Source of the DNA: an uncultured delta proteobacterium
GTDB lineage: Bacteria > Desulfobacterota > Binatia > DP-6
NCBI GenBank assembly: GCA_963815115.1
Contig: CAWFFN010000009.1
Location: 928,001 to 992,000, forward strand
Direction of reading: 5' to 3'
Length of the DNA stretch: 64,000 nt
The translations under genes were made by a program, and so were the position numbers. This document shows, one piece after another, positions 2,919 to 55,033 of this stretch (within the stretch, counting starts at the first letter, position 1; each line of letters starts with the position of its first letter). The notes under the pieces were generated by a model. It was not told where the DNA came from, searched no databases, and was given only the letters and a program-made list of their open reading frames with translations.

Positions 2919-3758
2919 TCAGCGCGCCAGGAACACGGGCGCTCCGCTGTTGCGGAGCACGTACTCGGTGGTGCTCCCGAGCACCATCTCGATGATGCGC
3001 GAGTGGCCGTAGGCGCCGATGAAGAGCAGGTCGAAGCGCCCGTCGCGCAGCACGTCGACGATGCGCTGGTGCGGCGGACCGGTGAGCGGCTTCGGCGTCA
3101 CGGGCACGTCGTACGACTGCAGGTAGCGCTGCGCCTCGGCGAGCACCCGGCCGCCTTCGCTGCCGTCGTCGCGGGAGACGTGCACGACGGTGAGCGGCAG
3201 CTGGAGGGAGCTCGTCACCTCCGCCGCAGCATGGAGCGCCGCGCTCGCCCGCTGCGAGCCGTCGTATGCCAGGAGCGGGCGACCGATCTCGTGGAACTGG
3301 AGTGGCGTCACCAGGACGGGCTTCGGGCTCTTGCGGGTGACCGATTCCGTCGTGCTGCCGAGCAAGCCGCTGGAGAACTGCTCGTTCACTCCGCGGTGGC
3401 CGACGACCACCAGGTCGGCGGTGCGGGCCTGGTCGCAGATCTCGTTCGCCACGATCCCCATGGGAAGCGCCGTGTCGTGCGCGATGCCTTCCGTCTCGCA
3501 CCGGGCGGTGAAGGCGTCGAGGAGCACGCGCCCGCGCTCCTGCAGGGCCTCGCGCATCTTCGACGAGAAGTCGAGGTAGGGCTCGAAGCCGAGGGAGCCC
3601 GACACGTCGTGCAGGAACGACCCCTCGATCGAGACGATGTCCAGGACGTGGAGACCGATCAGGCGGGCTTGCAGCCGGCGCGCCAGCCAGAGCGCATGCT
3701 CGAGCGCGCTGTCGGCGTGCTGAGACCCGTCGAGCGCGACCAGGATGCTCTTGATCAT
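2919..3758 (-). CDS. Universal stress protein, tandem Usp domains
   Basis: IKSILVALDGS...DLVVVGHRG...LLGSTTESVTRKSPKPVLV, then a second domain LLAYDGS...GAYGHSRIIEMVLGSTTEYVLRNS. Confidence 0.93.
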   Translation of the reverse strand: MIKSILVALDGSQHADSALEHALWLARRLQARLIGLHVLDIVSIEGSFLHDVSGSLGFEPYLDFSSKMREALQERGRVLLDAFTARCETEGIAHDTALPMGIVANEICDQARTADLVVVGHRGVNEQFSSGLLGSTTESVTRKSPKPVLVTPLQFHEIGRPLLAYDGSQRASAALHAAAEVTSSLQLPLTVVHVSRDDGSEGGRVLAEAQRYLQSYDVPVTPKPLTGPPHQRIVDVLRDGRFDLLFIGAYGHSRIIEMVLGSTTEYVLRNSGAPVFLAR

Positions 3759-3864
3759 GGTGCAGCCTCCGATCCGGCTCTAACCCGGGGCCGGCAGGCA
3801 CGCAAGGACCTACGCGCTGCGCGCCCGCTTGCAAACGTCCGGCCGCCTCGCCAAAACGTGCGCG

Positions 3865-4149
3865 GTGAGCCGTCGCGACGAGACGCTGTGCGAGGAGCTG
3901 AAGGAGCTCGCGACGCGGCTCGGGCTGCGCGTTCGCGAAGAGATCCTGCTGCGTGAGGTCGGGTACCGCGTACGCAGTGGCCTGTGCCGCGTGCGCGGCG
4001 AGGACGTGCTCTTCCTCGATCGCAACCTCTCTCCGGGCGAGCGTCTCGAGGTCTTGCTGGGAGCGCTCGGCGGGATGGACATCGATGCGCACTACGTGTC
4101 GCCCGCGCTCCGCCACGTGCTGGAACGGCGCGGCAGCACCGCCGCCTAG
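3865..4149 (+). CDS. Small hypothetical protein directly upstream of fur
   Basis: Coding-like ORF (EELKELATRLGLRVREE...SGLCRVRGEDVLFLDRNLS) that ends 9 nt before fur. Confidence 0.75.
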   Translation: MSRRDETLCEELKELATRLGLRVREEILLREVGYRVRSGLCRVRGEDVLFLDRNLSPGERLEVLLGALGGMDIDAHYVSPALRHVLERRGSTAA

Positions 4150-4158
4150 GATCGGGCC

Positions 4159-4638
4159 ATGGTTCGCGCCCGCATGCGGCTCTTCGAGCAGGCGTTGCGC
4201 GAGCGGGGTCTCAAGTCGACCGCGCAGCGCGACGACATCGCGCGCGCGTTCTTCGGCGCCGCCGAGCACCTCTCGGTCGAGGAGCTGCACGCGGCGGTGA
4301 AGAAGGTGAACCCGCGCGTCGGCTACGCGACCGTCTACCGGACGCTGAAGCTGCTGAAGGAGTGCGGGCTCGCCGACGAGCGCCATTTCGACGACGGGCA
4401 GGCCCGCTACGAGCCCACCGAGGCTGCGGAGCAGCACCACGACCACATCATCTGCGAGCGCTGCGGCAAGATCGTCGAGTTCAACAGCGACGAGCTGGAG
4501 AAGCTCCAGGAGCGCATCGCGCGCTTCCTCGGTTTCGTCGTGAGCCGCCATCGCATGGAGCTCTACGGCATCTGCGCGGAATGCCGCGAGGGCCGGCGAA
4601 GCGCCGGTCGGGCGCCGCGCGGCGTGCAGCAAGTCTAG
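4159..4638 (+). CDS. fur: Ferric uptake regulator
   Basis: HLSVEEL, ATVYRTLKLL, HHDHIICERCGKIVEF, HRMELYGICAEC. Adjacent to a Fur-box-controlled iron permease. Confidence 0.92.
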   Translation: MVRARMRLFEQALRERGLKSTAQRDDIARAFFGAAEHLSVEELHAAVKKVNPRVGYATVYRTLKLLKECGLADERHFDDGQARYEPTEAAEQHHDHIICERCGKIVEFNSDELEKLQERIARFLGFVVSRHRMELYGICAECREGRRSAGRAPRGVQQV

Positions 4639-4729
4639 CGCTAGTCTAGCGCGCCGCCGGCATCAGTGTCCGAGGACGTGCCCGAGCTGGCGGCCGAGCT
4701 CCACCGGCCCACCCCGGGGAGCCTGCTGA

Positions 4730-4778
4730 TTGACAGGGAAGGGCAACCCGAAGTAATTGAAAGTGACTTTCAAAATCG
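4730..4778 (+). promoter_or_regulatory. Sigma70-type -35 (TTGACA, 4730-4735) and Fur box TTGAAAGT-G-ACTTTCAA (4757-4773)
   Basis: Perfect 8-1-8 AT-rich palindrome upstream of an FTR1 gene. A near-identical copy lies upstream of bfd. Confidence 0.85.
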
Positions 4779-4789
4779 AGCATCTCCGA

Positions 4790-6943
4790 ATGCCCGCACC
4801 CTCCCTGCTCCGCCGCCTCCTGCCGCTCGTCCTGACGCTCGGGTGCGTGGTCGCGCCGGTGTCCTCGCGCGCGGCGGGCGAGGACGCGACCGCCGACACG
4901 CGACGGCTTCTCACGCTGCTCGCGGGGATACGCGGCGAGTACCATGAGGCCTTCGACGCCCGGGGCAACGTCAGCCGCTCCATCGAGATCGAGGAAGCGA
5001 AGCTGCTGCTGGCCGAGGCGCGCGATCTGAACGCCCGCCTCACCCTGGTCGATCCCGCCGCGCTCGACGCCGTCGCCCGGGACATCGAGCAGCACGCTCC
5101 CGCGAGCGCGCTCGGGCCGCGGATCGAGGCGATCGCGACGGGCATCACGGCGCGCACCGGGATCCGCGACGACCCCCTCGCGCCGGAGCCGCCCTCCGCG
5201 GTGCGGGGACAGGTGGTCTTCAGCGAGAACTGCGCCGGCTGCCACGGGGCAACCGGTGACGGCGGAGGCACCGAAGCGCGCCGCCTGGGGTTGGCGCCCG
5301 CCAACTTCGCGAACCCCGCCTTCATGCGCGGCGAGACTCCGCGCGACCACTTCAACGTGGTCTCGCTCGGTCGCCGTCGCTCGGGCATGCCCGAATGGGC
5401 GGACGCTCTCAGCGTGCAACAGCGCTGGGACGCGGTCAGCTACCTCTGGACCCTGGCGCATCCCCGACCGGCGCTGCTCGAGGGCCAGCAGCTCTACCAG
5501 GAGAACTGCGCGGGCTGTCACGGTGCCGACGGGGCGGGACACGGCCCGCGGGCCGCCGCGCTGTCGGGCCGGATGCCCGACTTCCACCGGCCGGGAAGCC
5601 TGATCGATCGGACGGACACCCAGCTGCTGGGCGTCGTGAGCGACGGGGTCCCCGGCACCGCCATGGCCGCCTTCGGGGGAGCGCTGAGCGAGGACCAGCG
5701 CTGGAAGACCGTCGCCTGGGTGCGTGCCCTGTCGCTCGGCGGCGCGGAGCCGCCGGCGGCGGCGCCGGAGCGCGCGGAGAGGGCTACGGAGCCAGCGCAG
5801 CTCGCGGCCCGCACGAGCGCGGCGGTGGGAGAAGCCCACCGGCTGCTCGACGAGGCGATCGCAGCCCGCCGCCGCGGAGAGGCGGCGGCGGGAGCGATCG
5901 CCACCGACGCCTACATGCGCTTCGAGCCCTTCGAGAAGCGTCTCGGTGCGGTCGATCCGGGAGCGGTCGTCCGGGTCGAGGAGGGGTTCGTGCGCGTGCG
6001 TGGCGCGCTGCACGAGCCGGGCACCAGCGTGTCGCCCGCGCTGGAATCCGAGGTGGCCCAGCTGCACCGTCACCTCGATGCGGCGGTGGCCGTCCTCGGC
6101 GCGAGCGGAGGCGACTGGGCCCGCTTCGTCCAGTCCGCCGGCATCATCCTGCGCGAGGGCTTCGAGATCGTGCTGATCGTGGGCGCGCTGCTCGCGTACG
6201 TGCGCCGGAGCGGGCAGGTGTCGCTGGTCCGGCCGATTCACGCTGGCGTCGTCCTCGGCGTGCTCGCGAGCGTGGGCACCGCGGCGCTCCTCAGCACGGT
6301 GCTGCGGCTCTACCCGGGTGCGAGCGACGTGCTGGAGGGAGCGGCGATGCTGCTCGCCGCCGGCGTGCTCTTCTGGGTGAGCTACTGGCTCGTCGCGAAG
6401 GCCGGGGCCGACCGCTGGCAGCGCTTCATCCAGGGCAAGGTGAAGGACGCGATGGCCATGGGCAGCAGCACGGCGCTCGCCGTCGCCGCCTTCCTCGCGG
6501 TCTATCGCGAAGGCTTCGAGACCGTCCTCTTCTACCGCGCGCTGCTCGGTGGGGCGCCGACCGGCGACGTGATGATCGGTGCGGGATTCCTGTGCGGGCT
6601 CGTGGTGCTGGCCGCGCTGTGGGTCGGTCTGTCGCGGCTCGGGCTCCGCGTGCCGCTCGGACCGTTCTTCCTGGTGACGGGCGCGTTCCTCTACGCGATG
6701 GCGATCGTCTTCGCCGGCCGCGGCGTCTTCGAGCTGCAGGACGCGGGCGTCATCGGGGTCACGCCGGTGCCGTTCGTGCCGCGGATCCCGGTGCTCGGGC
6801 TCTTCCCGACGCTCGAAACCCTCGTCGCGCAGGGTGTGCTCGTCGCCGCGCTTCTCGTGGCCGGCGTGGTGACGTGGCGCCGCCGCCTCCATCCGCCCCG
6901 AGGTCTGGAGGCGCAGCTCGCGTCCGGAGGCGGCCGCGCGTGA
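4790..6943 (+). CDS. FTR1-family iron permease fused to two cytochrome c domains (PbrT-like architecture)
   Basis: Signal peptide, two ENCAGCHG heme-c motifs, and a C-terminal multi-TM domain with two REGFE iron-binding motifs. Confidence 0.92.
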   Translation: MPAPSLLRRLLPLVLTLGCVVAPVSSRAAGEDATADTRRLLTLLAGIRGEYHEAFDARGNVSRSIEIEEAKLLLAEARDLNARLTLVDPAALDAVARDIEQHAPASALGPRIEAIATGITARTGIRDDPLAPEPPSAVRGQVVFSENCAGCHGATGDGGGTEARRLGLAPANFANPAFMRGETPRDHFNVVSLGRRRSGMPEWADALSVQQRWDAVSYLWTLAHPRPALLEGQQLYQENCAGCHGADGAGHGPRAAALSGRMPDFHRPGSLIDRTDTQLLGVVSDGVPGTAMAAFGGALSEDQRWKTVAWVRALSLGGAEPPAAAPERAERATEPAQLAARTSAAVGEAHRLLDEAIAARRRGEAAAGAIATDAYMRFEPFEKRLGAVDPGAVVRVEEGFVRVRGALHEPGTSVSPALESEVAQLHRHLDAAVAVLGASGGDWARFVQSAGIILREGFEIVLIVGALLAYVRRSGQVSLVRPIHAGVVLGVLASVGTAALLSTVLRLYPGASDVLEGAAMLLAAGVLFWVSYWLVAKAGADRWQRFIQGKVKDAMAMGSSTALAVAAFLAVYREGFETVLFYRALLGGAPTGDVMIGAGFLCGLVVLAALWVGLSRLGLRVPLGPFFLVTGAFLYAMAIVFAGRGVFELQDAGVIGVTPVPFVPRIPVLGLFPTLETLVAQGVLVAALLVAGVVTWRRRLHPPRGLEAQLASGGGRA

Positions 6944-7497
6944 CGATCGCCATCCTGATGGCGATCGCCGTGCTCATGGCTTCACCGGGCCGGGCGCAGG
7001 AGGGCGTCTTCCTGAGCGAGGACCAGGCGCCGGCGGCGGTCTTTCCGGACGCCGACCACTTTGCGCGCTCCGAGGTCGAATCCACCCCGGCGCTCCGCGA
7101 GCGCATGAGCGCCCGGCTCGACGGCGTCCATCCTTCGTTGTGGGAGGAGCGCTACGTCGTCTTCACGGCGACGCGCGGTGCGACCCCGCTCGGCCAGGCC
7201 CTGGTCGTCGAGGAGATCGGCAAGCATCGGCCGATCACCTTCGTCGTCGGGCTCCGACCGGATCGCAGCGTCAACGACGTCGCCGTGATGGACTACCGGG
7301 AAGCCTACGGCGGCGAGGTCCGCAGCACGCGCTTCCTGCGCCAGTACCGCGGCAAGGGACCGGGCGACGCCCTGCGGCCCGGTGACGAGATCACCAGCAT
7401 CGCCGGTGCCACGCTGTCCGTGGAGGCGGCGAGCCGCGCCGTTCGCAAGGCCCAGGCCCTGTCGGCCGCGCTCGACCAGCCCGGAGGGCAGCGGTGA
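6940..7497 (+). CDS. Secreted FMN-binding (flavinylated) domain protein
   Basis: GTG overlaps the upstream stop. Signal peptide, IGKHRPITFVVG, YREAYGGEV, FLRQYRGK and flavinylation-like motif IAGATLS. Confidence 0.88.
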   Translation: MTIAILMAIAVLMASPGRAQEGVFLSEDQAPAAVFPDADHFARSEVESTPALRERMSARLDGVHPSLWEERYVVFTATRGATPLGQALVVEEIGKHRPITFVVGLRPDRSVNDVAVMDYREAYGGEVRSTRFLRQYRGKGPGDALRPGDEITSIAGATLSVEAASRAVRKAQALSAALDQPGGQR

Positions 7498-8495
7498 GCG
7501 CTCGGCTGCTGGCCGGGATGCTCGCCCTGCTGCCGCTGGCCGCGGCGGCTGCGCCGCAGACCCAGGTGCACTACGTCATGGGCACCTACCTGCGCATCAT
7601 CGCCGACGGCGACGGCGCGGCCGCGGGGATGGCGGCTTGCTTCCGGGAAGCCCGGCGACTCGAGCACGTCTTCTCGCGCTTCGACGCGACGAGCGAGCTG
7701 TCACGGCTGAACGCCGAGGCGGCCGAGGAGACGTGGCCCGCGAGCGACGACATGTCCCGCCTGCTCGATCGGTCGCGCGCGCTGGCCGACGCCACCGGCG
7801 GGGTGTTCGACGTCGCCGTCGGGCCGCTCACCGCGCTCTGGCGTCGCCCCGAGCCGCCCAGCCGGGCCGAGCTCGCGGCGGCGCGGGCGGCGACGGGCCG
7901 CGGCGCGTTTCGCGTGCGCGGCGGCCGCGTGACCCTGGCACCCGGAGCGCGGCTCGACCTCGACGGCGTCGCCAAGGGGTATGCCGTCGACGTGTGCGCC
8001 GGCCGCCTGCGCGCCGCCGGCGTGTCGCGCGCGCTGGTGAGCCTCGGCGAGAGCAGCCTCTACGCCCTCGGCACGCCTCCGGGTGCTGCCTACTGGCGGC
8101 TCGCGGTCCGCGGCCCGGATCCGGAGACCCAGGTCGGGTGGCTCGGGCTGCGTGACGTCGGCGCCTCCGTCTCCGCGACCTACGGGAGCACTGGACGACG
8201 CGCCGGAACGGTGGCGCACATCATCGACCCGCGCAGCGGGCGTCCGCTCGAGGACGACGCGGTGGCGGTCGTCGCCGCGTCCTCGGCCACCGACGCCGAG
8301 GGCTGGACCAAGGCGCTCCTCGTGTGGGGCCGGGGCGGAGTCGAGCGCGTTCGCCGGGGCGGCGCGAGGGCGGCGGTGCACGTGACCTCCGAAGCGGTCC
8401 GCGCCGACGTCGCGGGCGATGCCGGAGGCTCGGTCACGTGGGCGCGCTTGCCGGCGCCGCGGCGCATCGCCGCGCGCGAGGAGCCGCTCCGGTGA
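7494..8495 (+). CDS. apbE: FAD:protein FMN transferase
   Basis: VMGT, FSRFDATSELSRLN, TGGVFDVAVGPLTALW, LDLDGVAKGYAVD, HIIDPRSGRP, ATDAEGWTKAL. Confidence 0.92.
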   Translation: MSARLLAGMLALLPLAAAAAPQTQVHYVMGTYLRIIADGDGAAAGMAACFREARRLEHVFSRFDATSELSRLNAEAAEETWPASDDMSRLLDRSRALADATGGVFDVAVGPLTALWRRPEPPSRAELAAARAATGRGAFRVRGGRVTLAPGARLDLDGVAKGYAVDVCAGRLRAAGVSRALVSLGESSLYALGTPPGAAYWRLAVRGPDPETQVGWLGLRDVGASVSATYGSTGRRAGTVAHIIDPRSGRPLEDDAVAVVAASSATDAEGWTKALLVWGRGGVERVRRGGARAAVHVTSEAVRADVAGDAGGSVTWARLPAPRRIAAREEPLR

Positions 8496-9004
8496 GGGTG
8501 TTCGGCTCTCCGGGCTTCCTCCTGAGCGACGCGCGCCTCGAGGTGCGGCTGGTCTACACCGGCTTCCTGGTGCTGGCGCTCGTCGGCATGGCGACCATGG
8601 CGCTCTTCCAGGTGAAGGCCATCGGCCCGGGGCCGGCGCAGATCGCCGCCTACTTCCGGGGCGGCGAGCGCAACGGCGCGATGACCTTCCAGAAGACGTT
8701 CCGCGAGCTGATCGAGCTGACGCACTTTCACGCCTTCGTGATGGGCCTGGTCTACCTGGTGATGGCGCACCTCGTGCTCGCGACCAGCGCCTCCGATACC
8801 GTCAAGCGCTTTGCCATCGTCCTCGCGTTCGCCGGCCTCGCCGGCGACGTGCTGGGCGTCTGGCTGATCCGCTACGTCTCGGGCGCGTTCGCGTATACGC
8901 AGGTGCTGAGCTGGATCGCCGAGTGGCTCGGCTTTTCGGCGTTCGTCTACTACCCGCTGAGAGAGATGTGGTTCCGTGAAGGACGCGGGGCGCGAACAAG
9001 CTGA
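8492..9004 (+). CDS. His-containing integral membrane protein (about 4 TM), function unknown
   Basis: GTG overlaps the apbE stop. Hydrophobic helices and motif KTFRELIELTHFHAFVMGLVYLVMAHL. Confidence 0.8.
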   Translation: MRVFGSPGFLLSDARLEVRLVYTGFLVLALVGMATMALFQVKAIGPGPAQIAAYFRGGERNGAMTFQKTFRELIELTHFHAFVMGLVYLVMAHLVLATSASDTVKRFAIVLAFAGLAGDVLGVWLIRYVSGAFAYTQVLSWIAEWLGFSAFVYYPLREMWFREGRGARTS

Positions 9005-9149
9005 GCACGATCTGCGCTGCCAGTGCGGGAGCCTGATGGCTCGCGTCACCGAAGCGGGCATCGAGCTCAAGTGCCGGCGCTGCAAGCGCGTCGTCGTGGT
9101 ACCGGTCAGGGGGATGACCGGCGACTGGATCGAGGTGTCGATGCGCTGA
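8976..9149 (+). CDS. 57-aa Cys4 zinc-ribbon protein, Mu Com-like (not in the ORF track)
   Basis: Manual translation: MKDAGREQAEHDLRCQCGSLMARVTEAGIELKCRRCKRVVVVPVRGMTGDWIEVSMR*. Pattern CxCG..LxR...IELKCxRCK. Start codon uncertain. Confidence 0.75.
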   Translation: MKDAGREQAEHDLRCQCGSLMARVTEAGIELKCRRCKRVVVVPVRGMTGDWIEVSMR

Positions 9150-9192
9150 ACCGGCGCGACATCCGAGCCAGCGGCCAGCGGTCGACGAACCC

Positions 9193-9243
9193 AGAGCCCG
9201 GAGCGCGCGCACGGCGGAGCGCGCGTCCGGGCTCTTTCCGTTT
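9193..9243 (+). terminator. GC-rich hairpin with an interrupted U-rich tail (putative intrinsic terminator or attenuator) before the porin gene
   Basis: AGAGCCCGGA (9193-9202) pairs with TCCGGGCTCT (9226-9235), and CGCGCGC (9204-9210) with GCGCGCG (9219-9225). 8-nt loop, followed by TTCCGTTT. Confidence 0.6.
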
Positions 9244-9258
9244 GGACAAGGGGGATCG

Positions 9259-10914
9259 ATGGACAGAGGACGGTTGTGCGTCGCACTCGCGATGGCGGCG
9301 CTGGTGGTCGGGAACGGTACGGCGGTGGCCGAGAGCCTCGAGCAGCGCGTCGAGCGCATGGAGAAGGAGCTGCAGGAGCTCAAGTCGGAGCTCCGGCGGC
9401 GCGATGCGGCCGATCGCCGGCGGGCGGCCGAGGAGTCGAAGCGCAGGCCCGCCGAGACGGTGGCGGCACCGCCGCCGCCGCCGTCGAAGCCGGGCGCCGT
9501 CGCGGCCGCCCCCGCGCCCGAGCCCGGCACCGAGGCGGCGCGCACGGCCAAGGCGGGCGAGAGCGAGAAGGGCGGCTACCTGCCGAGCTCGCTCCGCGCC
9601 ATCACCGACCGGGTGAAGGTCGGCGGCTACGGCTCGATCCGCTTCGAGGCCAACAGCAACCCGGCCGACAACAACACCTTCACCTACCGCCGCTTCGTGC
9701 TGACCACCGATGCCAACATCGCCCCCCGGCTGCACGCGTACATGGAGCTCGAGCTGGAGCGCTTCCGCGAATTGGAAATCGAGAAGACCCTGCAGCCGAG
9801 CGATGGCGGCCTCGCCGCGACCCAGGCCGTCGAAGCCACCAACGGCTCGGAGATCTCGCTCGAGCAGGCGTGGCTGCAGTACGACGTCCAGGACTGGCTC
9901 AAGTTCCGGGGCGGCGCGGTGCTGGTCCCGGTCGGCCGCTTCAACCTGCACCACGACGACGACCTCTGGGATCTGCCGCGCCGCTCGCTGGTGGATCGCG
10001 GGGTGCCCGTGCTGCCCGTTCCCGCCGCCTGGGACGAGCTGGGCATGGGCTTCCTCGGCGACGTGCCGCTCGGCGACGACATGACGCTCAACTACCAGAC
10101 CTACGTCGTCAACGGCGTGACCCTCGACTACGAGTTCGAGCAGATCGCCCAGACCCGCTTCCCGGACACGCCGCTGCAGGCGATCGAAGTCGAGGTGCAG
10201 CCGTTCACCGGCACCTTCTCGAACGACGTCAAGAACGCGAAGTCCTTCACCGGGCGACTCGCGCTGAGCCCCGCGCTGGGCCACGAGGTGGGCGCCTCCT
10301 GGTACTACGGCCGCTACACGCCGAGCTTCCTGCCCAGCGAGAGCCTGTATTCTCTCGCCGGCGACTGGAAGAGCATCTTCGGGCACTTCGAGGTCGAGGG
10401 CGAGTACGTCTTCACGCACTTCGGCGGCGTCAAGAACGTCGCCACCGGTCTGGCGCGGGTCGCGCGCGAGCAGGAGTCGGAGTTCGAGAACCCGACGCTC
10501 GAGAGCGAGGTCGAGTTCGAGCTCGCCAACATCGCGACGAGCAAGCAGGGATACTGGCTCGACTTCCGCTATCGCTTCTGGCCCGACTTCCTCACCAAGA
10601 GCTTCCTCGGCTGGGAGTTCGAGAACCCGCAGCTCGTCGCCGTGCTGCGCGGCGAGCAGGTGTGGCTGAACGGCTTGGTGGAGGAAGCGGCGTTCGGCGG
10701 GGGCCGGCTCGTCTCGTTCGAGACCGACGACCGGCGGGTCGACCGCATCACCGTCGGCCTGTCGTATCGTCCGGTGCCGCTCGTCGTCTTCCAGCTCGCC
10801 TACGAGTACACGCTCACCAACAGCGGCAAGAGTCTGTCCAGCGTCACGAACTTCATCCCGGGCAACGTCGATCATCAGAGCGCATTCCTGTTCGGCGCCG
10901 CCTTCGGATTCTGA
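9259..10914 (+). CDS. Outer-membrane beta-barrel porin-like protein with N-terminal coiled coil
   Basis: Signal peptide, coiled coil, Pro-rich linker, amphipathic strands (VGGYG, LEQAWLQY, VPVGRFNLHHD) and C-terminal Phe (GAAFGF). Confidence 0.8.
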   Translation: MDRGRLCVALAMAALVVGNGTAVAESLEQRVERMEKELQELKSELRRRDAADRRRAAEESKRRPAETVAAPPPPPSKPGAVAAAPAPEPGTEAARTAKAGESEKGGYLPSSLRAITDRVKVGGYGSIRFEANSNPADNNTFTYRRFVLTTDANIAPRLHAYMELELERFRELEIEKTLQPSDGGLAATQAVEATNGSEISLEQAWLQYDVQDWLKFRGGAVLVPVGRFNLHHDDDLWDLPRRSLVDRGVPVLPVPAAWDELGMGFLGDVPLGDDMTLNYQTYVVNGVTLDYEFEQIAQTRFPDTPLQAIEVEVQPFTGTFSNDVKNAKSFTGRLALSPALGHEVGASWYYGRYTPSFLPSESLYSLAGDWKSIFGHFEVEGEYVFTHFGGVKNVATGLARVAREQESEFENPTLESEVEFELANIATSKQGYWLDFRYRFWPDFLTKSFLGWEFENPQLVAVLRGEQVWLNGLVEEAAFGGGRLVSFETDDRRVDRITVGLSYRPVPLVVFQLAYEYTLTNSGKSLSSVTNFIPGNVDHQSAFLFGAAFGF

Positions 10915-10925
10915 GGAGATGTGAA

Positions 10926-12548
10926 ATGTCGACGATCAAGCTCCTGCTCCTGCTGCTCGTGCTCCTCGGCCCCGCCGTCGCGCGGGCCGACGACGACGAG
11001 GGCGGCGGAGAGGAGGCCGATCCCCCCGAGGTGGTGATCGGCGAGCGGCTCTTCCTGGAGACACGCTTCGCCCAGTTCTTCCAGGCCCACGCCGGCGGCA
11101 ACATGAACGCGGTGCTCGCGCAGGGCGATCCGGTGATGAACACGCTCGATACGACGGCGGGGCCGATCGCCGCTCCGTTCCCGGGCGCCGGCATGAACTG
11201 CCGGCAGTGTCACCTGGTCGACGACGCCAAGGAGACGCCCGGGGGCGGCAATCGCAGCTATGCCGACTTCGCGCGCCACAGCCCCATCCCGGCACGCGAG
11301 GACGGCCGCACGATGACGCCGCGCAACTCCCCGCCGCTGGTCAACGCCAGCCTCGCGCGCGGGCGACCGTTCTTCCTGCACTTCGACGGCGAGTTCCCCT
11401 CCACCGCCGCCCTCGTCGAGGGCACCCTCACCGGACGCAACTTCGGCTGGCTGCCGAACGAGCGCGGGCAGGCCGTGGCGCACATCGCCGCCGTGATCCG
11501 GGGCGACGACGGCACGGGTCAGCTGGCGGCCGACAACGGCGGCGCGTACCGCCGCGTGCTCGGTGGCAGCGACCCGTCCATCCCGAAGGAGCTCCGGCTG
11601 CCGAAGCGGTTTCGCATCGACGTCGATCGCGCGAGCGACGATCAGATCCTGCGCGCGGTGGCGCGCCTGATCTCCGCCTACGTCGAGTCGCTCGAGTTCG
11701 AGAACGCGTCACCCTACGACCGCTTCCTCGAGAAGAACGGCCTGCCGACCGAGCCGCGCGAGTTCGAGTCGACGGCCGACTACCTGAAGCGGCTCAAATT
11801 CCTGATGGGCGAGCACGGGGACCCCGAGCCGATCACCGATGCGGACGGCGCCTTCCAGCTGCACGAGCAGCAGTTCGTCTTCGGCGCGGACGAGCTCGAG
11901 GGCCTGCGCATCTTCCTGGACCGCGGGCGTGGCAACTGCGTCTCCTGCCATCCGCCGCCGGACTTCACCGACTTCAGCTTCCACAACACGGGCGTGGCGC
12001 AGGAGGAGTACGACGCGCTGCACGGCGCAGGCAGCTTCGCGGCCCTCGCCATTCCCGACCCGGCGATCCGCAAGGCCGATCCCGATGCCTTCCTGCCGGC
12101 GACGGCCCTTCATCCCGCCGCGCTGGAGCCCTTCCGGGCGATCCCGGCGGCGGATGCGCCGGGACGCACCGACCTGGGCATGTGGAATCTGCTGGAGAAC
12201 CCGGACTATTCCGGCCGCACGTACCAGCGTCACCTCGAGCGCATGGTGTGCGCGTCGCAGGGGTCGCCGGCGAGCTGCCGCCGGGCGCCGGACGCGCTCC
12301 TCGCCGCCTCGATCGCCCTCTTCAAGACGCCCGGGCTACGCGACCTCGGGCACTCCGGACCGTATCTGCACAACGGCTCGAAGGACGCCCTCGAGGACGT
12401 CGTGCGGTTCTACGCCAACGCGTCGGCCCTGGCTCGGGCAGGCCAGCTGCGCAACGGCGCGCGTGAGCTGCGGGACATGCACATCGGCGACGGTGACGTC
12501 GTCCCCCTGGCGGCGTTCCTGCGGGCCCTCAACGAGGACTACGAGTAG
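10926..12548 (+). CDS. Di-heme cytochrome c peroxidase/MauG-family protein (atypical)
   Basis: GAGGAG RBS, signal peptide, IGERLF, CRQCH, RNSPPLVN, GNCVSCH, FHNTG, FKTPGLRDL...PYLHNG. Confidence 0.88.
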   Translation: MSTIKLLLLLLVLLGPAVARADDDEGGGEEADPPEVVIGERLFLETRFAQFFQAHAGGNMNAVLAQGDPVMNTLDTTAGPIAAPFPGAGMNCRQCHLVDDAKETPGGGNRSYADFARHSPIPAREDGRTMTPRNSPPLVNASLARGRPFFLHFDGEFPSTAALVEGTLTGRNFGWLPNERGQAVAHIAAVIRGDDGTGQLAADNGGAYRRVLGGSDPSIPKELRLPKRFRIDVDRASDDQILRAVARLISAYVESLEFENASPYDRFLEKNGLPTEPREFESTADYLKRLKFLMGEHGDPEPITDADGAFQLHEQQFVFGADELEGLRIFLDRGRGNCVSCHPPPDFTDFSFHNTGVAQEEYDALHGAGSFAALAIPDPAIRKADPDAFLPATALHPAALEPFRAIPAADAPGRTDLGMWNLLENPDYSGRTYQRHLERMVCASQGSPASCRRAPDALLAASIALFKTPGLRDLGHSGPYLHNGSKDALEDVVRFYANASALARAGQLRNGARELRDMHIGDGDVVPLAAFLRALNEDYE

Positions 12549-14484
12549 GAAGGGGCACGCGTAGCGGGTTCGGCCCGGGGGGCCAGAGGCCGTGCTCGAC
12601 GGCCTCGGCCCCGCGGAAGACCACGAAGCTCTCGCCGCCGTAGTGGGGCAGCGGTCTGGCGATGGCGCGGAGGGCGTCGGCGCCGTCCGCCGCCACGACG
12701 GCGATCGGCGCCCGGTCGCGTCGTCGAGCCGCCCAGACGCGTGCCGTGCCCTTGCCGGCCAGCGCCGGCGGCGGCCCGTCGAGCTGCGCGCGGGCCAGCT
12801 GCGCCGCGACGTCGTCCGTGGTGCCGACCACCAGGACGGCCCCCGGCGGGAGCGCGCCGCCGGGGGCCTCGGCGACCGTCGGCGGGCGCTCGAAGAACCG
12901 CGCCGCCAGCTCGCGCGCCGCGGTCCGGGTCGCCTGGTCGGATCCCGCGAGCACCGTCTCCGCCGTCGGGTCGAAGGCGACCTCGCGCAGGATGGGCGGG
13001 ATCTCGGCGGGAGCGAGACGCCGGAAGAGGCGGAGGTCGGGGTCGACGGCGAGCGCCCGGGGCTCGGCCGTGACGTCGACGGCGAACGTCCGCGTGGTCT
13101 CGGCGAGGTACAGCGTCCTGCCCACCGGTCCGGCCGCGGTCTCGACGGTCACCGGGACGCCCAGCACGTACGGCGGCTCGTCCTGCGTGAGCGCGAACGA
13201 GACGCGAGCGGGCTCGGAGGCGACGTCGCCGAGCCCCAGGCGCGGCGCCCCGGGCCGGCGCAGCCACTGGGTGAAGAACGGCGTCAGCGAGCGGCTGGCG
13301 GCGGAGGCGAATGCGGCTTCGAGATCGTTCCAGGTCGCGGCCTCGAAGCGATGCGCCTGCCAGAAGCGCCGCACGCCGGTCGCGAACGCCTCCGGCCCGA
13401 TCTGGTCGCGCAGCATCTCGAAGACGAACGCCGCCTTGTGATAGCCGGTGGCCTGCGACGCGGTGTGCATGCGTCCCCGGAAGCTGTCGAGGGGGCGATC
13501 CTCGGCCGCCGGCAGGACCGCGAACTCGCGCAGCCAGGCGAGACGCTGGTCGCGCGCGGCCTCCTCGCCACGGCGCTCCGTGAACGTGTAGTCGGCCATG
13601 AAGGTGGTGAGGCCCTCCGCCCAGTTGCCGTCGCGACCGTCGACGCGCACCCCCTCGCCCCACCACGAGTGCAGCACCTCGTGTCCCAGCGAGGTGGCGG
13701 GGATGAAGGGCAGCCGCAGCACCCGCGCGCCCATGTAGGTCATGCCCGGAAACGCGAGCCCGACCGGAAGCGGGCTCGAGACGATCGAGAAGCCGGGGTA
13801 CGGATAGCCGCCGATCCAGCCGTCGTAGAGATCGAGGTAGTCCGCGGTGCGCTCGAGATAGGTGTCGGCGAGATCGGCGGCAGCGGCGTCGAAGTAGGTG
13901 CGAAGGCGCCAGCCGCGATGGATGCGCTCCGAGACGCGGTACGGCCCGGCGAAGAGCGGCAGGTCCGCCACCGGCGCGATCGACGCGAAGCTCGCCCGGT
14001 AGCGCCCTCCGTCGGTGGTCTCCGAGGTCAGGCGACCCGGAGTGAGGGCGCGCTGCGGATCCGGGACGTCGATCGTGACCTCGTAGGTGAAGAGGCCGCC
14101 GAAGGTCGGGAACCAGCCGTCGGGCAGGTACGATCCGTCCGTCCCGGCGACGGGACCGGTGACGTCGGCCGCCTCGGGAGGCGAGGCCACGTGCCCCCGG
14201 TACTCGACCACCACGTCGTGCCGGGCGTCCTGGTCGAGGGCGATCCGTCCGCCGCGCATCCCGACCTGGGCCGGCTTGCCGTCGACGACGAGTCGAACGA
14301 TCGCGAACCCGGGCGCCAGCTTGAAGGCGGCCGGCCCGCGGCCGCGAAGCGCGATACGGTCGGTACCCTGGAGCGCGCGCTGTGCCGGCTCGAACCGCAG
14401 CTCGAGCACGTGATGCACCGGAGCGTCGGCGGCGAGGGCCCGCGCCGCGAGCGCGAGCGCCAGGAGAGCGCCGGCGCGGGTCAC
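12529..14484 (-). CDS. Secreted M1-family metallo-aminopeptidase
   Basis: Signal peptide, GHEVLHSWWG...NWAEGLTTF zinc motif, YHKAAFVFEML, FFTQWL. Confidence 0.88.
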   Translation of the reverse strand: MTRAGALLALALAARALAADAPVHHVLELRFEPAQRALQGTDRIALRGRGPAAFKLAPGFAIVRLVVDGKPAQVGMRGGRIALDQDARHDVVVEYRGHVASPPEAADVTGPVAGTDGSYLPDGWFPTFGGLFTYEVTIDVPDPQRALTPGRLTSETTDGGRYRASFASIAPVADLPLFAGPYRVSERIHRGWRLRTYFDAAAADLADTYLERTADYLDLYDGWIGGYPYPGFSIVSSPLPVGLAFPGMTYMGARVLRLPFIPATSLGHEVLHSWWGEGVRVDGRDGNWAEGLTTFMADYTFTERRGEEAARDQRLAWLREFAVLPAAEDRPLDSFRGRMHTASQATGYHKAAFVFEMLRDQIGPEAFATGVRRFWQAHRFEAATWNDLEAAFASAASRSLTPFFTQWLRRPGAPRLGLGDVASEPARVSFALTQDEPPYVLGVPVTVETAAGPVGRTLYLAETTRTFAVDVTAEPRALAVDPDLRLFRRLAPAEIPPILREVAFDPTAETVLAGSDQATRTAARELAARFFERPPTVAEAPGGALPPGAVLVVGTTDDVAAQLARAQLDGPPPALAGKGTARVWAARRRDRAPIAVVAADGADALRAIARPLPHYGGESFVVFRGAEAVEHGLWPPGPNPLRVPLPTRSPR

Positions 14485-15653
14485 CGTGGCCGCTCGAAGC
14501 GCGCGATCACCCGCCGGTCGCCGCCGCCGCGCCGGACGACGAGCGGGAGCCAGGTGCCGGGCGGCTGGACGTCGACCATGGCGCGCAGGTCCTCGGGGCT
14601 CGTCACCGCCGCGCCCGCGGCCTCGACGATCACGTCCCCGCGCCGGAGGCCGGCCGTGGCAGCGACGCTGCCCGGCGTCACCTCGGTGATCCGCACGCCG
14701 CGCTTCGCCGGCGCGAGCGCGACGCCGAGCCGGGGCCGCGATTCGGGCTTCTCGGCGCTCGGCGCGATGCCGAACACCGCGTCGGCGAGGTCGGGAGCGA
14801 GCGCGCCGCAATCGCGCGTGGTGTCCCAGGGCAGGAGGACGGTCACGTCGCGGGCCCCGAGCGCGGCGAGCTGGTGAGGCACGCCGTGACCGTGCTCGAG
14901 ATGCCCGCTCCCCATGATGCCGATCACGACGGAGCCAGGGTGCGCGCGGGCCGCCGTCACGAGGCCTTCCGCGAGGGCGCGGTCCCAGGTGAGCTGGGCC
15001 TCGACGAACCGCTTCCGGCTCGCCTCGTCGCTGCCCTGCTTGCCGGCGTGCGCGGCCAGGGCGTCGGAGAGCGTGGCCTCGTAGGCGGGGCTCGCGGGCG
15101 CGGGGTCGGATATCCCCTCGCGCTCGGCGGGGGGCACGGCGGCCCAGCCCTCACGTCCCACCCGTGTCACCAGTGCCCGATCCACGTTGAGCGCCCGCAC
15201 GGGCACGCGGTTCAGCCGGGCGAACTGGAGGAGCGGCAGGTAGAGCCCGGGAGGAAACCCCCACACGCGCTGCCAGTCGGTGTCGCGCAGCAGGGATCGC
15301 TCGTCGAGCTCACCGGCAACCCAGCGGTCGAGCACGGGCTGGGCGCGGCGCGGGAACATCTCGAAGCCCAGCACGACCGCCGGATGCTCGGCGGCGATGG
15401 CCGCCACGGTCTGCAGCTGCCAGCGGTGGTCATCGGGTCGATCGTGGTACTCGCCGAGGAGCACGATGCGCGAGCGCGCGGCGCGGGCGATGACCGCGGG
15501 CGCCGGCTGCTCGGCGCCGGAGGCGGGGAGCACCCACCGTCCGGGTGGCACGCAGGCCCCCGTCAGGGCACCCGCGCGGCCGGGCTTCGGAGCACGGCCG
15601 CACCCCGCGGCGAGCAGGGCGAGCACCACGACGGCGCACGAGACCCGAGGCAC
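14481..15653 (-). CDS. ChaN/PhuW-like iron-regulated lipoprotein with C-terminal PDZ domain
   Basis: Lipobox LAAGC, LLGEYHD...HRWQL, GFEMF, AQLTWDRALA, GSGH, and PDZ motif GSVAATAGLRRGDVI. Confidence 0.88.
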   Translation of the reverse strand: MPRVSCAVVVLALLAAGCGRAPKPGRAGALTGACVPPGRWVLPASGAEQPAPAVIARAARSRIVLLGEYHDRPDDHRWQLQTVAAIAAEHPAVVLGFEMFPRRAQPVLDRWVAGELDERSLLRDTDWQRVWGFPPGLYLPLLQFARLNRVPVRALNVDRALVTRVGREGWAAVPPAEREGISDPAPASPAYEATLSDALAAHAGKQGSDEASRKRFVEAQLTWDRALAEGLVTAARAHPGSVVIGIMGSGHLEHGHGVPHQLAALGARDVTVLLPWDTTRDCGALAPDLADAVFGIAPSAEKPESRPRLGVALAPAKRGVRITEVTPGSVAATAGLRRGDVIVEAAGAAVTSPEDLRAMVDVQPPGTWLPLVVRRGGGDRRVIARFERPR

Positions 15654-53508: not shown

Positions 53509-53557
53509 CCGGTCGCGGGGTTGCCTCAGGTCCGCGTTGGTCTTACATCAGGGATAA

Positions 53558-53576
53558 CCCAGGAACGATTCCTATT
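53558..53576 (+). promoter_or_regulatory. PerR-like operator CCCAGGAACGATTCCTATT upstream of ahpC
   Basis: AGGAA-N3-TTCCT palindrome just upstream of the AGGAGG RBS of a peroxiredoxin. Resembles deltaproteobacterial PerR sites as I recall them. Confidence 0.6.
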
Positions 53577-53592
53577 TTCAACAGGAGGGCTG

Positions 53593-54177
53593 ATGGCCGC
53601 ACACGTGCAACAACCCGCCCCGCACTTCACCTGCGAGGCACTCGTCAACGGAGCGTTCAAGGACGTGTCCTTGTCGGACTACAAGGGCAAGTACCTGGTG
53701 CTCTTCTTCTACCCGCTCGATTTCACCTTCGTCTGCCCGACGGAGATCCTCGCGTTCAACGATCGCGCGGCCGAGTTCACCGCGATCGGATGCGAGCTCG
53801 TCGGAGCATCCGTGGACAGCAAGTACACGCATCTCGCCTGGACCGGCACGCCGCGCAAAGAGGGCGGCATAGCGGGGGTCACCATCCCGCTGCTGGCCGA
53901 TCTGAAGAAGGAGATCGCGCGCGACTACGGCGTGCTGCTGCCCGACGGCGTCGCGCTCCGCGGTCTCTTCGTCATCGATCCGAAGGGCGTCGTGCGCCAC
54001 ATCACGATCAACGACCTGCCCATCGGGCGCTCGGTCGACGAAGCCTTGCGCGTCGTCCAGGCGATCCAGTTCTTCGAAGAGCACGGCGAGGTCTGCCCCG
54101 CCAACTGGACGCCGGGCCAGGACGCCATGAAGGCCGACCCGAAGGGCTCGAAGGACTACTTCCGCAAGGTCGGCTGA
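53593..54177 (+). CDS. ahpC: 2-Cys peroxiredoxin
   Basis: [39 protein letters not shown]. Confidence 0.95.
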
Positions 54178-54237: not shown

Positions 54238-54708
54238 TCATTTGTGCATCTGCTCGGCGAGATACTGGGCCTGGCCGACGCTGGCGATGAGGCCGAGCTG
54301 CGTTTCGAGCCAGTCGACGTGCTCCTCCTCGCTCTCGAGGATGTCCTCCAGCAGGTCGCGCGAGGTGTTGTCGCCCTCGTCCACGCAGAGGGCGATCGCC
54401 TTGTTGAGCTTGGTCACGGCTTCGCGCTCCAGCCCGAGGTCGGACTTGAACTGCTCGGGCACGGTCTCGCCGATGTGCAGCGTGCCGAGCTTCTGGAGGT
54501 TGGGGACGCCTTCCAGGAAGAGGATCCGCTCGGTCAGGTCGCTGGCGTGCTTCATCTCGCTGATGGCTTCCTTGTAGTTCTCCTCGGCGAGACGGTGGAA
54601 GCCCCAGTTCTTGCACATCTTGGAGTGCAGGAAGTACTGGTTGATGCCGACGAGCTCGCCGGCGAGGACGTCGTTCAGCGCCTGGATGACCTTCTTGCTC
54701 CCCTTCAT
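54238..54708 (-). CDS. bfr: Bacterioferritin
   Basis: MKG...ELVGINQYFLH, EMKHA (heme Met), ERILFLEGVPNLQ, EEEHVDWLETQL. Confidence 0.96.
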   Translation of the reverse strand: MKGSKKVIQALNDVLAGELVGINQYFLHSKMCKNWGFHRLAEENYKEAISEMKHASDLTERILFLEGVPNLQKLGTLHIGETVPEQFKSDLGLEREAVTKLNKAIALCVDEGDNTSRDLLEDILESEEEHVDWLETQLGLIASVGQAQYLAEQMHK

Positions 54709-54795: not shown

Positions 54796-54975
54796 TCAGC
54801 CCCGGGCCTGCTCGAAGCGAGCCTCGAGGTGGCGCTCGAGGCGGGCGAGACACGATCCGCAATCGGCGCCGGCACCGTCGCAGGAGCGGGAGACCTCGTC
54901 GAGAGTCCGCGCCCCGCAGCGCACGGCCTCGCGGACGTCACCTTCGGAGATTCCCCGGCAGATGCACAGGATCAT
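54796..54975 (-). CDS. bfd: Bacterioferritin-associated ferredoxin [2Fe-2S], 59 aa (not in the ORF track)
   Basis: Manual translation: MILCICRGISEGDVREAVRCGARTLDEVSRSCDGAGADCGSCLARLERHLEARFEQARG*. CxC...CGSC pattern, directly upstream of bfr. Confidence 0.92.
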   Translation of the reverse strand: MILCICRGISEGDVREAVRCGARTLDEVSRSCDGAGADCGSCLARLERHLEARFEQARG

Positions 54976-55011: not shown

Positions 55012-55033
55012 CGATTTTGAAAGTCGATTTCAA
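55012..55033 (-). promoter_or_regulatory. Fur box upstream of bfd, overlapping the tatD stop codon
   Basis: Minus-strand TTGAAATCGACTTTCAAAATCG is 20/22 identical to 4757-4778. Confidence 0.82.

Follow-up and report, generated by a model that had tools for sequence, protein, structure and literature searches.

A lineage-specific iron-linked operon in a Binatia bacterium combines a cross-phylum module of predicted porin, flavoprotein and PF27139 protein with a haem-fused FTR1 permease

Introduction

Iron permeases of the FTR1/EfeU kind, which are marked by two REXXE motifs in transmembrane helices, serve in oxidase-permease systems such as yeast Fre1/Fet3/Ftr1, EfeUOB of E. coli and B. subtilis, and FtrABCD of Bordetella and Brucella, and the redox partner differs from one system to another, e.g. 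Fet3 with Ftr1, a membrane polyferredoxin sink in FtrABCD and a haem peroxidase in EfeUOB. Iron uptake without siderophore systems, and the supply of redox partners to FTR1, are only partly understood. The subject here is an operon of an uncultured delta proteobacterium (Bacteria; Desulfobacterota; Binatia; DP-6) in which an FTR1 permease fused to two cytochrome c domains is encoded together with a flavin mononucleotide (FMN)-binding protein, an ApbE enzyme, a small membrane protein, a zinc (Zn) ribbon, an outer-membrane barrel and a di-haem protein. It lies in a 64,000-nucleotide stretch (assembly GCA_963815115.1, contig CAWFFN010000009.1, positions 928,001 to 992,000), the whole of which is called the window below and supplies the coordinates; the host genome, to which whole-genome negatives refer, has 6,891,854 bases and is 100% complete.

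Covalent flavinylation outside the cytosol provides the other body of closely related work. The main text of Meheust 2021 (PMC8238504, eLife) proposes flavinylated systems as assimilatory iron reductases, counts FMN_bind genes in 260 P19/FTR1 clusters and distinguishes five membrane systems (NapH-, MsrQ- and PepSY-like, DsbD, and NQR/RNF-like), with the PepSY-like, MsrQ-like, DsbD and NQR/RNF-like ones occurring with ferrous transporters and Fur control reported for some PepSY-like clusters. In Huang et al. 2024 (PMC11334425, mSystems), DUF4405 and FezC are flavinylation-associated cytochromes b, FezC being modelled as a homodimer, and neither ‘porin’ nor ‘FTR1’ occurs in that text.

As judged from comparative sequence data, the present operon appears to be a lineage-specific assembly of an undescribed cross-phylum module of porin, flavoprotein and PF27139 membrane protein with a haem-fused FTR1, and it falls within flavinylation-linked iron assimilation. 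That it is iron-regulated and serves iron acquisition is very probable. Our fuller reading, that of an iron-repressed composite operon in which the module would be a quinol-fed, flavin-based periplasmic ferric reductase with its own porin, feeding a haem-equipped FTR1, is put forward with moderate confidence.

Organization of the operon and comparison with described systems

The Fur-family gene and seven further co-oriented open reading frames, termed g1 to g7, occupy 4159-12548 on the plus strand:

4159..4638, +, fur, Fur-family metalloregulator, directly upstream of g1 and co-oriented with it
4790..6943, +, g1, di-cytochrome c::FTR1 fusion (FTR1 89.9 bits, Cytochrome_CBB3 88.6 bits)
6940..7497, +, g2, secreted FMN_bind protein (Pfam FMN_bind 29.7 bits, cut-off 22)
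7494..8495, +, g3, ApbE, flavin adenine dinucleotide (FAD):protein FMN transferase (Pfam ApbE, PF02424, 176.1 bits, cut-off 25.6)
8492..9004, +, g4, four-helix inner-membrane protein of 170 amino acids (aa), its homologues labelled PF27139 (Aq_1264_TM)
8976..9149, +, g5, 57-aa cytoplasmic Zn ribbon, Com-like (CxC...CxxC)
9259..10914, +, g6, 551-aa outer-membrane beta-barrel with signal peptide, coiled coil and C-terminal Phe
10926..12548, +, g7, secreted MauG-family di-haem protein of 540 aa (CCP_MauG, PF03150, 26.9 bits, cut-off 25.6)

With the starts chosen, the overlaps are 4 nucleotides (nt) at g1/g2, g2/g3 and g3/g4 and 29 nt at g4/g5, while g5 and g6 are 109 nt apart and g6 and g7 11 nt; the packing is as tight as operons get, and terminator-like sites are at chance level (2 seen, 2.3 expected). 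The original prediction had described seven co-oriented genes behind a perfect palindrome, the first five overlapping one another, and this description is borne out, all being real plus-strand frames in the place given. Its start for g1, a TTG at 4757, has been replaced: because that codon falls inside the operator palindrome, the ATG at 4790 is the likelier start.

What the operon shares with the clusters in the main text of Meheust 2021 (PMC8238504) is an ApbE with a secreted FMN_bind protein beside an iron importer, and the proposed extracytosolic reduction of iron for uptake. It differs in having no P19 in the genome and in its membrane partner, a PF27139 protein with four transmembrane helices (4-TM), which is none of the five named systems; it goes beyond those clusters in its dedicated porin, its Com-like Zn ribbon, its MauG-like protein and an FTR1 with two fused c haems. 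That main text names neither the 4-TM family nor the porin nor the haem-fused FTR1 as part of its systems; its supplementary tables may list such clusters. None of the papers listed on Binatia and iron, on iron in Nitrospira or on fusions of FTR1 with cytochrome c deals with the module, and nothing appeared under Aq_1264; the initial impression that the combination is not a characterised system finds agreement, within the stated coverage of that article.

With the oxidase-permease systems the common ground is a two-REXXE FTR1/EfeU permease coupled to a periplasmic redox partner. The haem peroxidase EfeB has a parallel in g7 and the membrane electron carrier FtrD one in g4, and in yeast a reductase comes first and the oxidase-permease after it, the same order as proposed below for the window operon. 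The difference lies in the redox centres: there is no multicopper oxidase or cupredoxin in the operon and no P19 or EfeO in the genome, and in their place are c haems fused to the permease and a predicted covalently bound flavin on a separate protein.

Conservation of a barrel, FMN_bind and 4-TM triad

Fourteen loci were available from close relatives, whose proteins carry the label Candidatus Binatia. The order fur-g1-g2-g3-g4-g5-g6-g7 is kept, as far as the contigs reach, in 5 of these 14 (G001, G003, G004, G010, G014), two (G005, G018) have the rearranged order fur-g1-ApbE-barrel-FMN_bind-4TM, and seven have only g1 or its FTR1 part. Beyond them, a profile of 53 g4 members was run on a phylum-wide sample of 201 genomes and matched in 21; from the 18 places fetched, nine matching only residues ~57-168 were set aside and nine, full-length or tandem, were kept. 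With one divergent g4 member as query, 357 relatives were obtained and 80 loci retained, every one from Nitrospirota; a second such query led to 17 loci in Nitrospinae, Gemmatimonadota, Latescibacterota, Handelsmanbacteria, Lentisphaerae and Deltaproteobacteria or without a named group. Neighbours were counted with one query panel, in loci with a 4-TM hit only, FMN_bind being counted within 8.5 kilobases (kb) unless stated:

Binatia family, 9 loci: FMN_bind 9/9 (<=1.5 kb 7/9), barrel 9/9, ApbE 9/9, Zn ribbon 7/9, MauG-like 4/9
Phylum sample, 8 loci: FMN_bind 8/8 (<=1.5 kb 8/8), barrel 8/8, ApbE 5/8, Zn ribbon 0/8, MauG-like 0/8
Nitrospirota, 39 loci: FMN_bind 39/39 (<=1.5 kb 39/39), barrel 38/39, ApbE 38/39, Zn ribbon 38/39, MauG-like 18/39
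Other phyla, 17 loci: FMN_bind 17/17 (<=1.5 kb 16/17), barrel 15/17, ApbE 2/17, Zn ribbon 0/17, MauG-like 0/17

Taken together, all 73 loci have FMN_bind nearby and 70 of the 73 have a barrel. Because these counts agree across the Binatia, the phylum sample, the Nitrospirota and the other phyla, the conserved unit is the triad of barrel, FMN_bind protein and 4-TM protein, usually in that order, with ApbE nearby or elsewhere; in Nitrospirota and Binatia the triad is extended by the Zn ribbon and often by a MauG-like gene.

The permease fusion and the triad are separable modules, and the operon is a composite of them. G002, a congener, has fur, ApbE, barrel and 4-TM and lacks the fusion permease; G012 (99% complete) has a cyt c::FTR1 fusion at 52% identity and no PF27139 match. 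The seven genes had at first been drawn as one obligatory chain, from membrane protein through FMN protein and haems to FTR1. This was wrong, because the triad is an independent module, found with FeoAB, P19, plain FTR1 or no importer, because G002 and G012 each have one module without the other, and because the MauG-like gene, far from a fixed part, is an accessory present in 18 of 39 Nitrospirota and 4 of 9 Binatia-family loci. Recurrence across phyla, which a neighbourhood search was to establish for all components, was found for the triad and not for the full set of seven, which is not obligatory. What the first reading retains is Fur control, a role in iron uptake and an uncharacterised combination.

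Some triad loci carry further, lineage-specific genes. In Nitrospirota (L138, 6829-7299 and 8588-9334) barrel and FMN_bind are separated by a gene for a DUF3576-like lipoprotein, and the 4-TM gene is followed by one for an HD_5 (HD-GYP-type) protein; the insertion elsewhere is a secreted protein of ~300 aa with no Pfam family after the 4-TM gene in Gemmatimonadota, Latescibacterota and Handelsmanbacteria (L167, 8519-9406).

Iron genes beside the triad

The iron genes accompanying the triad are interchangeable, comprising cyt c::FTR1, plain FTR1, P19, FeoAB, or TonB/ExbBD with bacterioferritin. The fusion permease is found in 8 of the 9 Binatia-family loci. Elsewhere the triad stands beside a plain 270-aa FTR1 (L058), P19 with a Fer4_5 protein and FTR1 (L060), fur with FeoB and a DtxR-like repressor that has a FeoA domain (L067/L074), fur (L064) or ferritin (L029). 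FeoA-FeoB is divergently adjacent to it in Gemmatimonadota, Latescibacterota, Handelsmanbacteria and Lentisphaerae, with FeoB in 11 of the 17 other-phyla loci, and a Nitrospinae locus has P19 and an ATP-binding cassette (ABC) ATPase. The Nitrospirota neighbours are an ABC ATPase with TOBE_2, ExbB (39/39), ExbD, TonB (37/39) and bacterioferritin (33/39). No importer is nearby in L059, L061-L064 and the Nitrospirota loci, and the triad is also found without any haem protein. Entry independent of TonB, as originally suggested, may hold for the window operon; in Nitrospirota the module adjoins exbB-exbD-tonB.

Operator and regulator

Three elements are relevant to control:

4730..4735, +, TTGACA, likely -35 hexamer of the operon promoter, kept in 7/7 relatives with fur beside g1
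4757..4773, no strand, operator, perfect 8-1-8 palindrome TTGAAAGTGACTTTCAA, read as the lineage’s Fur box and overlapping the -10 region
55017..55033, no strand, second operator copy TTGAAAGTCGATTTCAA, upstream of bfd and bacterioferritin, apparently of the same regulon and outside the operon

The first palindrome, perfect in the form TTGAAAGT-G-ACTTTCAA, lies 17 nt upstream of the ATG at 4790 and 21 nt downstream of the TTGACA; a strict sigma-70 scan returned no full promoter. It is kept in all seven relatives with fur beside g1 (exact in three, with 1-3 changes in four), the TTGACA being at a fixed distance from it in all seven while the surrounding intergenic DNA has diverged; the Fur proteins of these relatives are 81-94% identical. 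The sole relative with g1 and without an adjacent fur (L018) has no palindrome. Across the 6,891,854 bases of the genome TGAAA-N5-TTTCA occurs at 5 sites, 3 of which are upstream of iron operons. Behind the copy at 55017-55033 are bfd (Fer2_BFD, 54799-54975, minus strand) and bacterioferritin (Ferritin, 54241-54708, minus strand). The third iron-linked site (L156) precedes a ChuX/HutX-like gene followed by TonB-receptor Plug, Peripla_BP_2, FecCD and ABC genes, and L156 is probably the haem or siderophore uptake locus of the host genome. The other two sites stand one before a PEMT-like membrane protein and one before nothing nameable. Because there are only five genome sites, and because the palindrome is conserved amid diverged intergenic DNA, it is judged to be more than a chance occurrence, and its distribution supports its being the predicted Fur box of this lineage.

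The regulator itself scores 125.9 bits with Pfam FUR, the strongest of three Fur-family genes in the genome; its top NCBIfam matches are the Fur equivalogs, at 92-120 bits, under their cut-offs of 146-220 (best 119.8 vs 220). The Nitrospirota operon has a distinct conserved 19-nt element, which in 52 of 60 loci (<=2 mismatches) separates a TTGACA from the start of the operon’s first gene; in 47 of 60 it differs from the Fur consensus of E. coli at no more than 4 positions. Two unrelated operators in two phyla point to the same regulation. The proposal of iron regulation and a role in iron acquisition gains from the conservation of the operator and from the second copy before bfd-bfr in the window.

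Two observations on these loci may be added. A 1-Cys peroxiredoxin gene (53521-54174, plus strand) adjoins bfd-bfr, and L156 (G000:C7:864000-876000) also has a 410-aa secreted protein, a Cys-rich protein and a divergent AraC-type regulator.

The haem-fused permease

The g1 product has a signal peptide, a helical domain of ~100 aa that matches no family, two class-I cytochrome c domains, a linker and the FTR1/EfeU permease. Its FTR1 domain (residues 451-652) reaches 89.9 bits with PF03239 against a cut-off of 25.3, and g1 is below the full-length cut-offs of TIGR00145 and of the EfeU equivalog; the REGFE motifs at residues 455 and 573 are both within hydrophobic segments. CAGCH motifs are at residues 148 and 240, Cytochrome_CBB3 matches in two stretches, and the cytochrome domains match cytochromes c in the PDB, down to 2.8e-12. 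It is the sole FTR1 in the host genome. The architecture is widespread in this lineage, with 510 homologues, whose sources name them generically as ‘FTR1 family protein’, ‘high-affinity iron transporter’ or ‘c-type cytochrome’.

The original prediction held that the partners of characterised FTR1 systems are absent. For two of them this now extends to the genome: P19 (PF10634) has no match there or in the operon, and none was obtained there for EfeO-type Peptidase_M75 (PF09375). By Pfam, a check that covered the operon, the seven genes include no EfeB, multicopper oxidase or FtrB-type cupredoxin.

At 5356-9582 of L027 (G000:C12:722000-740000) is a gene without FTR1 whose product is 41% identical to residues 17-473 of g1, a paralogue of its periplasmic half, adjoining a phosphoesterase and an encapsulin (Linocin_M18) with EncFtn cargo, an iron-storage nanocompartment. 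A second such paralogue (L028) follows a PhoD-like phosphatase.

The predicted flavoprotein and its presumed transferase

The host genome has a single PF04205 match, g2, and three ApbE genes, of which g3 carries an N-terminal signal or anchor. An N-terminal hydrophobic segment is present in g2, and all g2 orthologues examined have signal peptides. The flavinylation motif is SIAGATLS with Thr158 as putative acceptor. Its G-A/S-T core is kept in 11 of 11 aligned orthologues from three lineages, in the forms SGAT, TGAT, SGAS, AGST or MGST, with Thr at the acceptor position in 10 and Ser in 1; in 42 g2 sequences G156 is invariant and A157 and T158 are at least 90% conserved. The presumed substrate of the g3 enzyme is g2, with FMN on Thr158, and the early identification of an FMN_bind protein with an ApbE motif of the [S/T]GA[S/T] type is upheld by the unique PF04205 match and the retained Thr position.

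The membrane protein assigned to PF27139

Assignment of g4 to PF27139, a very recent Pfam family, comes from the labels of its homologues. All 120 listed homologues (60-94% identical) carry the precomputed PF27139 label, as do 84-100% of the members of the nearest atlas clusters; relatives in a representative library form 372 clusters at E<=0.001. Searched against a Pfam library without PF27139 (even at E<=10) and against NCBIfam, g4 gave no match. The AlphaFold model (predicted local distance difference test, pLDDT, 95) is a bundle of four helices whose first loop contains a hairpin and a further short helix. In 53 sequences G57, H78 and H80 are invariant, H93 is present in 42 and W160 in 50, and E75 and E158 in most. 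Our reading by the positive-inside rule is that both termini are cytoplasmic and the conserved first loop periplasmic; helix 2 would then begin on the periplasmic side, with H78 and H80, and have H93 close to its other, cytoplasmic end. Foldseek of the model against the PDB returned nothing at E<=0.001, and a wide VIA-align search gave generic helical bundles with a best Z of 8.2, below the meaningful level for helical proteins.

Like the PepSY-like, MsrQ-like, DUF4405 and FezC proteins, as treated in Huang et al. 2024 (PMC11334425), g4 is a small polytopic His-bearing protein, encoded beside apbE and a partner known or, for g4, predicted to be flavinylated, and is presumed to be an electron carrier of the cytoplasmic membrane. 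The flavinylation-associated cytochromes b described there have six helices, four central His (DUF4405) and proven haem b, whereas g4 has four helices and two invariant His (i, i+2), with a third in 42 of 53 sequences, and has no match to other Pfam families at E<=10.

Distant PF27139-like proteins of 246-259 aa share only helices 2-4 and the HxH (L075, 4750-9615; L065, 7600-9015). The one in L065 adjoins a di-haem cytochrome c, and those in L075 have a di-haem cytochrome c on one side and, on the other, a c7-type cytochrome with a molybdopterin oxidoreductase and FdhD. Such cytochrome neighbours fit a role of the g4 family as membrane redox partner, and these loci may represent respiratory use of the same membrane fold. 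The neighbours in L069-L073 (penicillin amidase, ThiS, MFS) were considered for a functional hint to the family, and none was gained.

The Zn ribbon, the barrel and the di-haem protein

No Pfam or NCBIfam model matches g5, orthologues of which (~50% identical) are in 38 of the 39 Nitrospirota loci. The Joint Genome Institute (JGI) labels about a dozen of 73 g5 homologues ‘phage FluMu protein Com’; in phage Mu, Com activates translation by binding RNA.

For g6, which in addition to the features listed above has a Pro/Ala linker and which itself matches nothing in Pfam, the identification as a porin comes from its relatives. The nearest atlas clusters have Porin_O_P in 16-74% of their members, and some orthologues pass Porin_O_P or Porin_4 models; against Porin_O_P (PF07396, cut-off 20.9) L058 scores 26.8 bits, L085 23.7, L166 31.3 and L167 28.2. 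It is judged to be a distant OprO/OprP-type porin, by which the earlier view of the beta-barrel as a porin is strengthened. OprP and OprO are anion-selective, and such selectivity, which would suit passage of anionic ferric complexes through g6, is a lead only.

The haem motifs of g7 are CRQCH at residue 92 and CVSCH at 338, and F495-Y496 is invariant. A profile of 20 orthologues matched the PDB entries 6e1c (1.5e-9), MauG (~7e-6) and 6nx0 (4.7e-6), significantly only in the C-terminal block, i.e. the last ~75 profile positions. There Y496 aligns with MauG residue 294 and F495-Y496 with MauG F-Y 293-294 (chain numbering); we take MauG Tyr294 to be the axial ligand of the six-coordinate haem, a position held by Met in the peroxidase type. 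The likeness of g7 to MauG (3l4m), 6nx0 and 6e1c is in two CxxCH, a conserved C-terminal block and the MauG-294-aligned Tyr; it differs from the MauG-family chains in length (540 aa vs 355-477 aa) and in having no known substrate protein nearby. Of these relatives, 6e1c presumably serves copper handling and MauG cofactor maturation. Nitrospirota orthologues are 45-51% identical to the window g7, and a structure model built from the 20-sequence alignment was poor (pLDDT 51, predicted template modelling score 0.33).

Proposed mechanism and alternatives

From the observed gene content, domain families, conserved operator, cross-phylum synteny and association with iron genes, we infer a set of redox steps and their direction, a cofactor for g4, a porin substrate and roles for g5 and g7. 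With iron plentiful, Fur would bind the palindrome over the -10 region and switch the operon off. The first, cross-phylum module would consist of the porin g6, the FMN protein g2 (flavinylated by g3 on Thr158) and g4. Small ferric complexes would enter through g6 as a dedicated OprO/P-like porin, g4 would draw electrons from the membrane and pass them to g2, onto its covalently attached FMN, and the reduced flavin would convert Fe(III) to Fe(II), to be taken in by whichever importer the lineage has. The likely electron source, and the most economical idea, is quinol, which g4 would oxidise close to its invariant HxH on the periplasmic side; alternatively a His-ligated haem b might bridge a g4 dimer. 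The second, lineage-specific module would be the FTR1 g1, with two fused c haems replacing copper, cupredoxin or EfeO/EfeB partners and re-oxidising Fe(II) at the mouth of the permease, an oxidase-permease coupling. By analogy with EfeB, g7 could be a peroxide-using electron sink or, by analogy with MauG, an oxidative maturation enzyme for a partner protein, and g5 may be a cytoplasmic accessory, possibly a post-transcriptional regulator.

A more ambitious version, which we regard as unlikely, is that porin, flavoprotein and 4-TM protein are joined in a single assembly across the envelope, comparable to porin-cytochrome conduits but based on flavin. Quinol would be oxidised by the 4-TM protein on the periplasmic side, the covalently flavinylated protein would dock into or under its dedicated porin, and incoming ferric iron would meet its reductant at the outer membrane; in this lineage the resulting Fe(II) would be re-oxidised by the FTR1-fused haems, with the MauG-like enzyme as a sink driven by peroxide.

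Several findings weigh against the reductase reading. The NCBIfam Fur scores are under their cut-offs, and the regulator could be another member of the Fur family. For g4 there is no recognisable cofactor site, the sole invariant His pair being i/i+2 on one helix and H93 missing in 11 of 53 sequences; it also has no fold or family link to the known flavinylation-associated cytochromes b, so that electron transfer through it is conjecture. The window g6 itself matches no Pfam porin model. The fusion in G012, without a g4 homologue, indicates that the permease does not need the triad. In Nitrospirota, FTR1, FeoB or P19 is within 8.5 kb in 0 of 39 loci, and the ABC ATPase (TOBE_2) and TonB neighbours there fit ferric as well as ferrous handling.

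Electrons might flow the other way, the operon being a ferroxidase-permease only, in which Fe(II) arriving via the porin would be oxidised by the g1 haems during import by FTR1 and the triad would be an electron sink rather than a reductase. The FMN protein and g4 would deliver the electrons to the quinone pool, or the MauG-like protein would pass them to peroxide. Such a flow is favoured by the coupling of Fe(II) oxidation to import in characterised FTR1 systems, by the presence in the operon of a peroxidase-type di-haem protein besides the two c haems of the permease, and by L060, where the triad is beside P19, a Fer4_5 protein and FTR1. Outside the Binatia lineage, however, the triad mostly pairs with FeoAB (11 of 17 loci), an Fe(II) importer to which an oxidase is of no use, and it is also present without any haem protein. 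It is mainly because of this frequent pairing with a ferrous importer that reduction by the triad is preferred over oxidation, and the reverse direction is considered unlikely. Comparably improbable is that g4, instead of carrying electrons, is a metal-binding membrane component that conducts or hands over Fe(II), acts as a sensor or anchors g2, with the FMN protein reduced by an unlinked system. In g4 only G57 and the HxH, predicted to lie at the periplasmic surface of the membrane, are invariant, with the acidic E75 and E158 nearby mostly conserved, a pattern resembling a metal site as much as a haem site, and the triad has no importer nearby in L059, L061-L064 and the Nitrospirota loci; some flavinylation clusters in the main text of Meheust 2021 (PMC8238504) rely on electron-transfer proteins encoded elsewhere. 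Yet the genes next to distant members of the family encode periplasmic cytochromes c and a molybdoenzyme, not transporters, a 170-aa four-helix bundle is small for a channel, and the importers, where present, are of known families.

A role outside iron uptake, e.g. peroxide or redox-stress defence, or Mn, Cu or Pb homeostasis under a PerR/Mur/Zur-like Fur paralogue, could draw on the regulator’s sub-cut-off Fur equivalog scores and its matches to PerR models, on the membership of g7 in a peroxidase-related family, and on the peroxiredoxin gene beside bfd-bfr. It is very improbable given that the same operator precedes bfd-bfr and the haem/siderophore-type uptake cluster, that in one phylum after another the triad is accompanied by FeoAB, P19, FTR1, bacterioferritin or regulators of the Fur or DtxR kind, and that g7 is absent from most triad loci. 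Least probable, to the point that we give it hardly any weight, is dissimilatory extracellular electron transfer, i.e. respiration of mineral Fe(III) through a conduit: the combination of a barrel in the outer membrane with redox parts in the periplasm and inner membrane has a formal likeness to porin-cytochrome conduits, and also to the flavin-based extracellular electron transfer of Gram-positives treated in the main text of Meheust 2021 (PMC8238504), but there are one FMN and at most four haems, a Fur-type operator, linked importers and a storage ferritin, and the carriers include aerobic nitrite oxidisers.

Neighbouring genes and environmental occurrence

Two convergent genes downstream (12532-14484 and 14484-15653) were considered as operon members and rejected, being on the opposite strand. 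The first encodes an M1-peptidase-like secreted protein and the second a ChaN-type ‘haem-binding uptake’ protein fused to a PDZ domain; no operator was seen near either. Directly upstream of fur, on the same strand, is a 106-aa open reading frame with no family match (3829-4146), preceded by a tandem-Usp gene (2922-3758, minus strand); a Usp gene also flanks fur in L064. The sequencing runs listed as matching the stretch are 11 DNA runs from soil or peat, with word shares <=0.24, and no RNA run is among them.

Implications

The triad is conserved from Binatia to Nitrospirota, Gemmatimonadota and Latescibacterota, always with iron genes beside it, and is for that reason a candidate common route of reductive iron acquisition in soil and water bacteria, nitrite oxidisers included. 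A testable function is thereby offered for Aq_1264_TM, a family with a name only, and PF27139 may supply the membrane partner for flavinylation clusters left without one in published surveys. If the trans-envelope version were true, PF27139 would add to the five membrane systems that serve extracytosolic flavinylation a sixth class, one poor in cofactors, and the operon would encode a reductase/oxidase-permease pathway analogous to yeast Fre-Fet3-Ftr1 with FMN and haem instead of FAD/haem b and copper. From the side of the permease, the haem-fused FTR1 and the MauG-like enzyme suggest a copper-free solution to the oxidase-permease problem.

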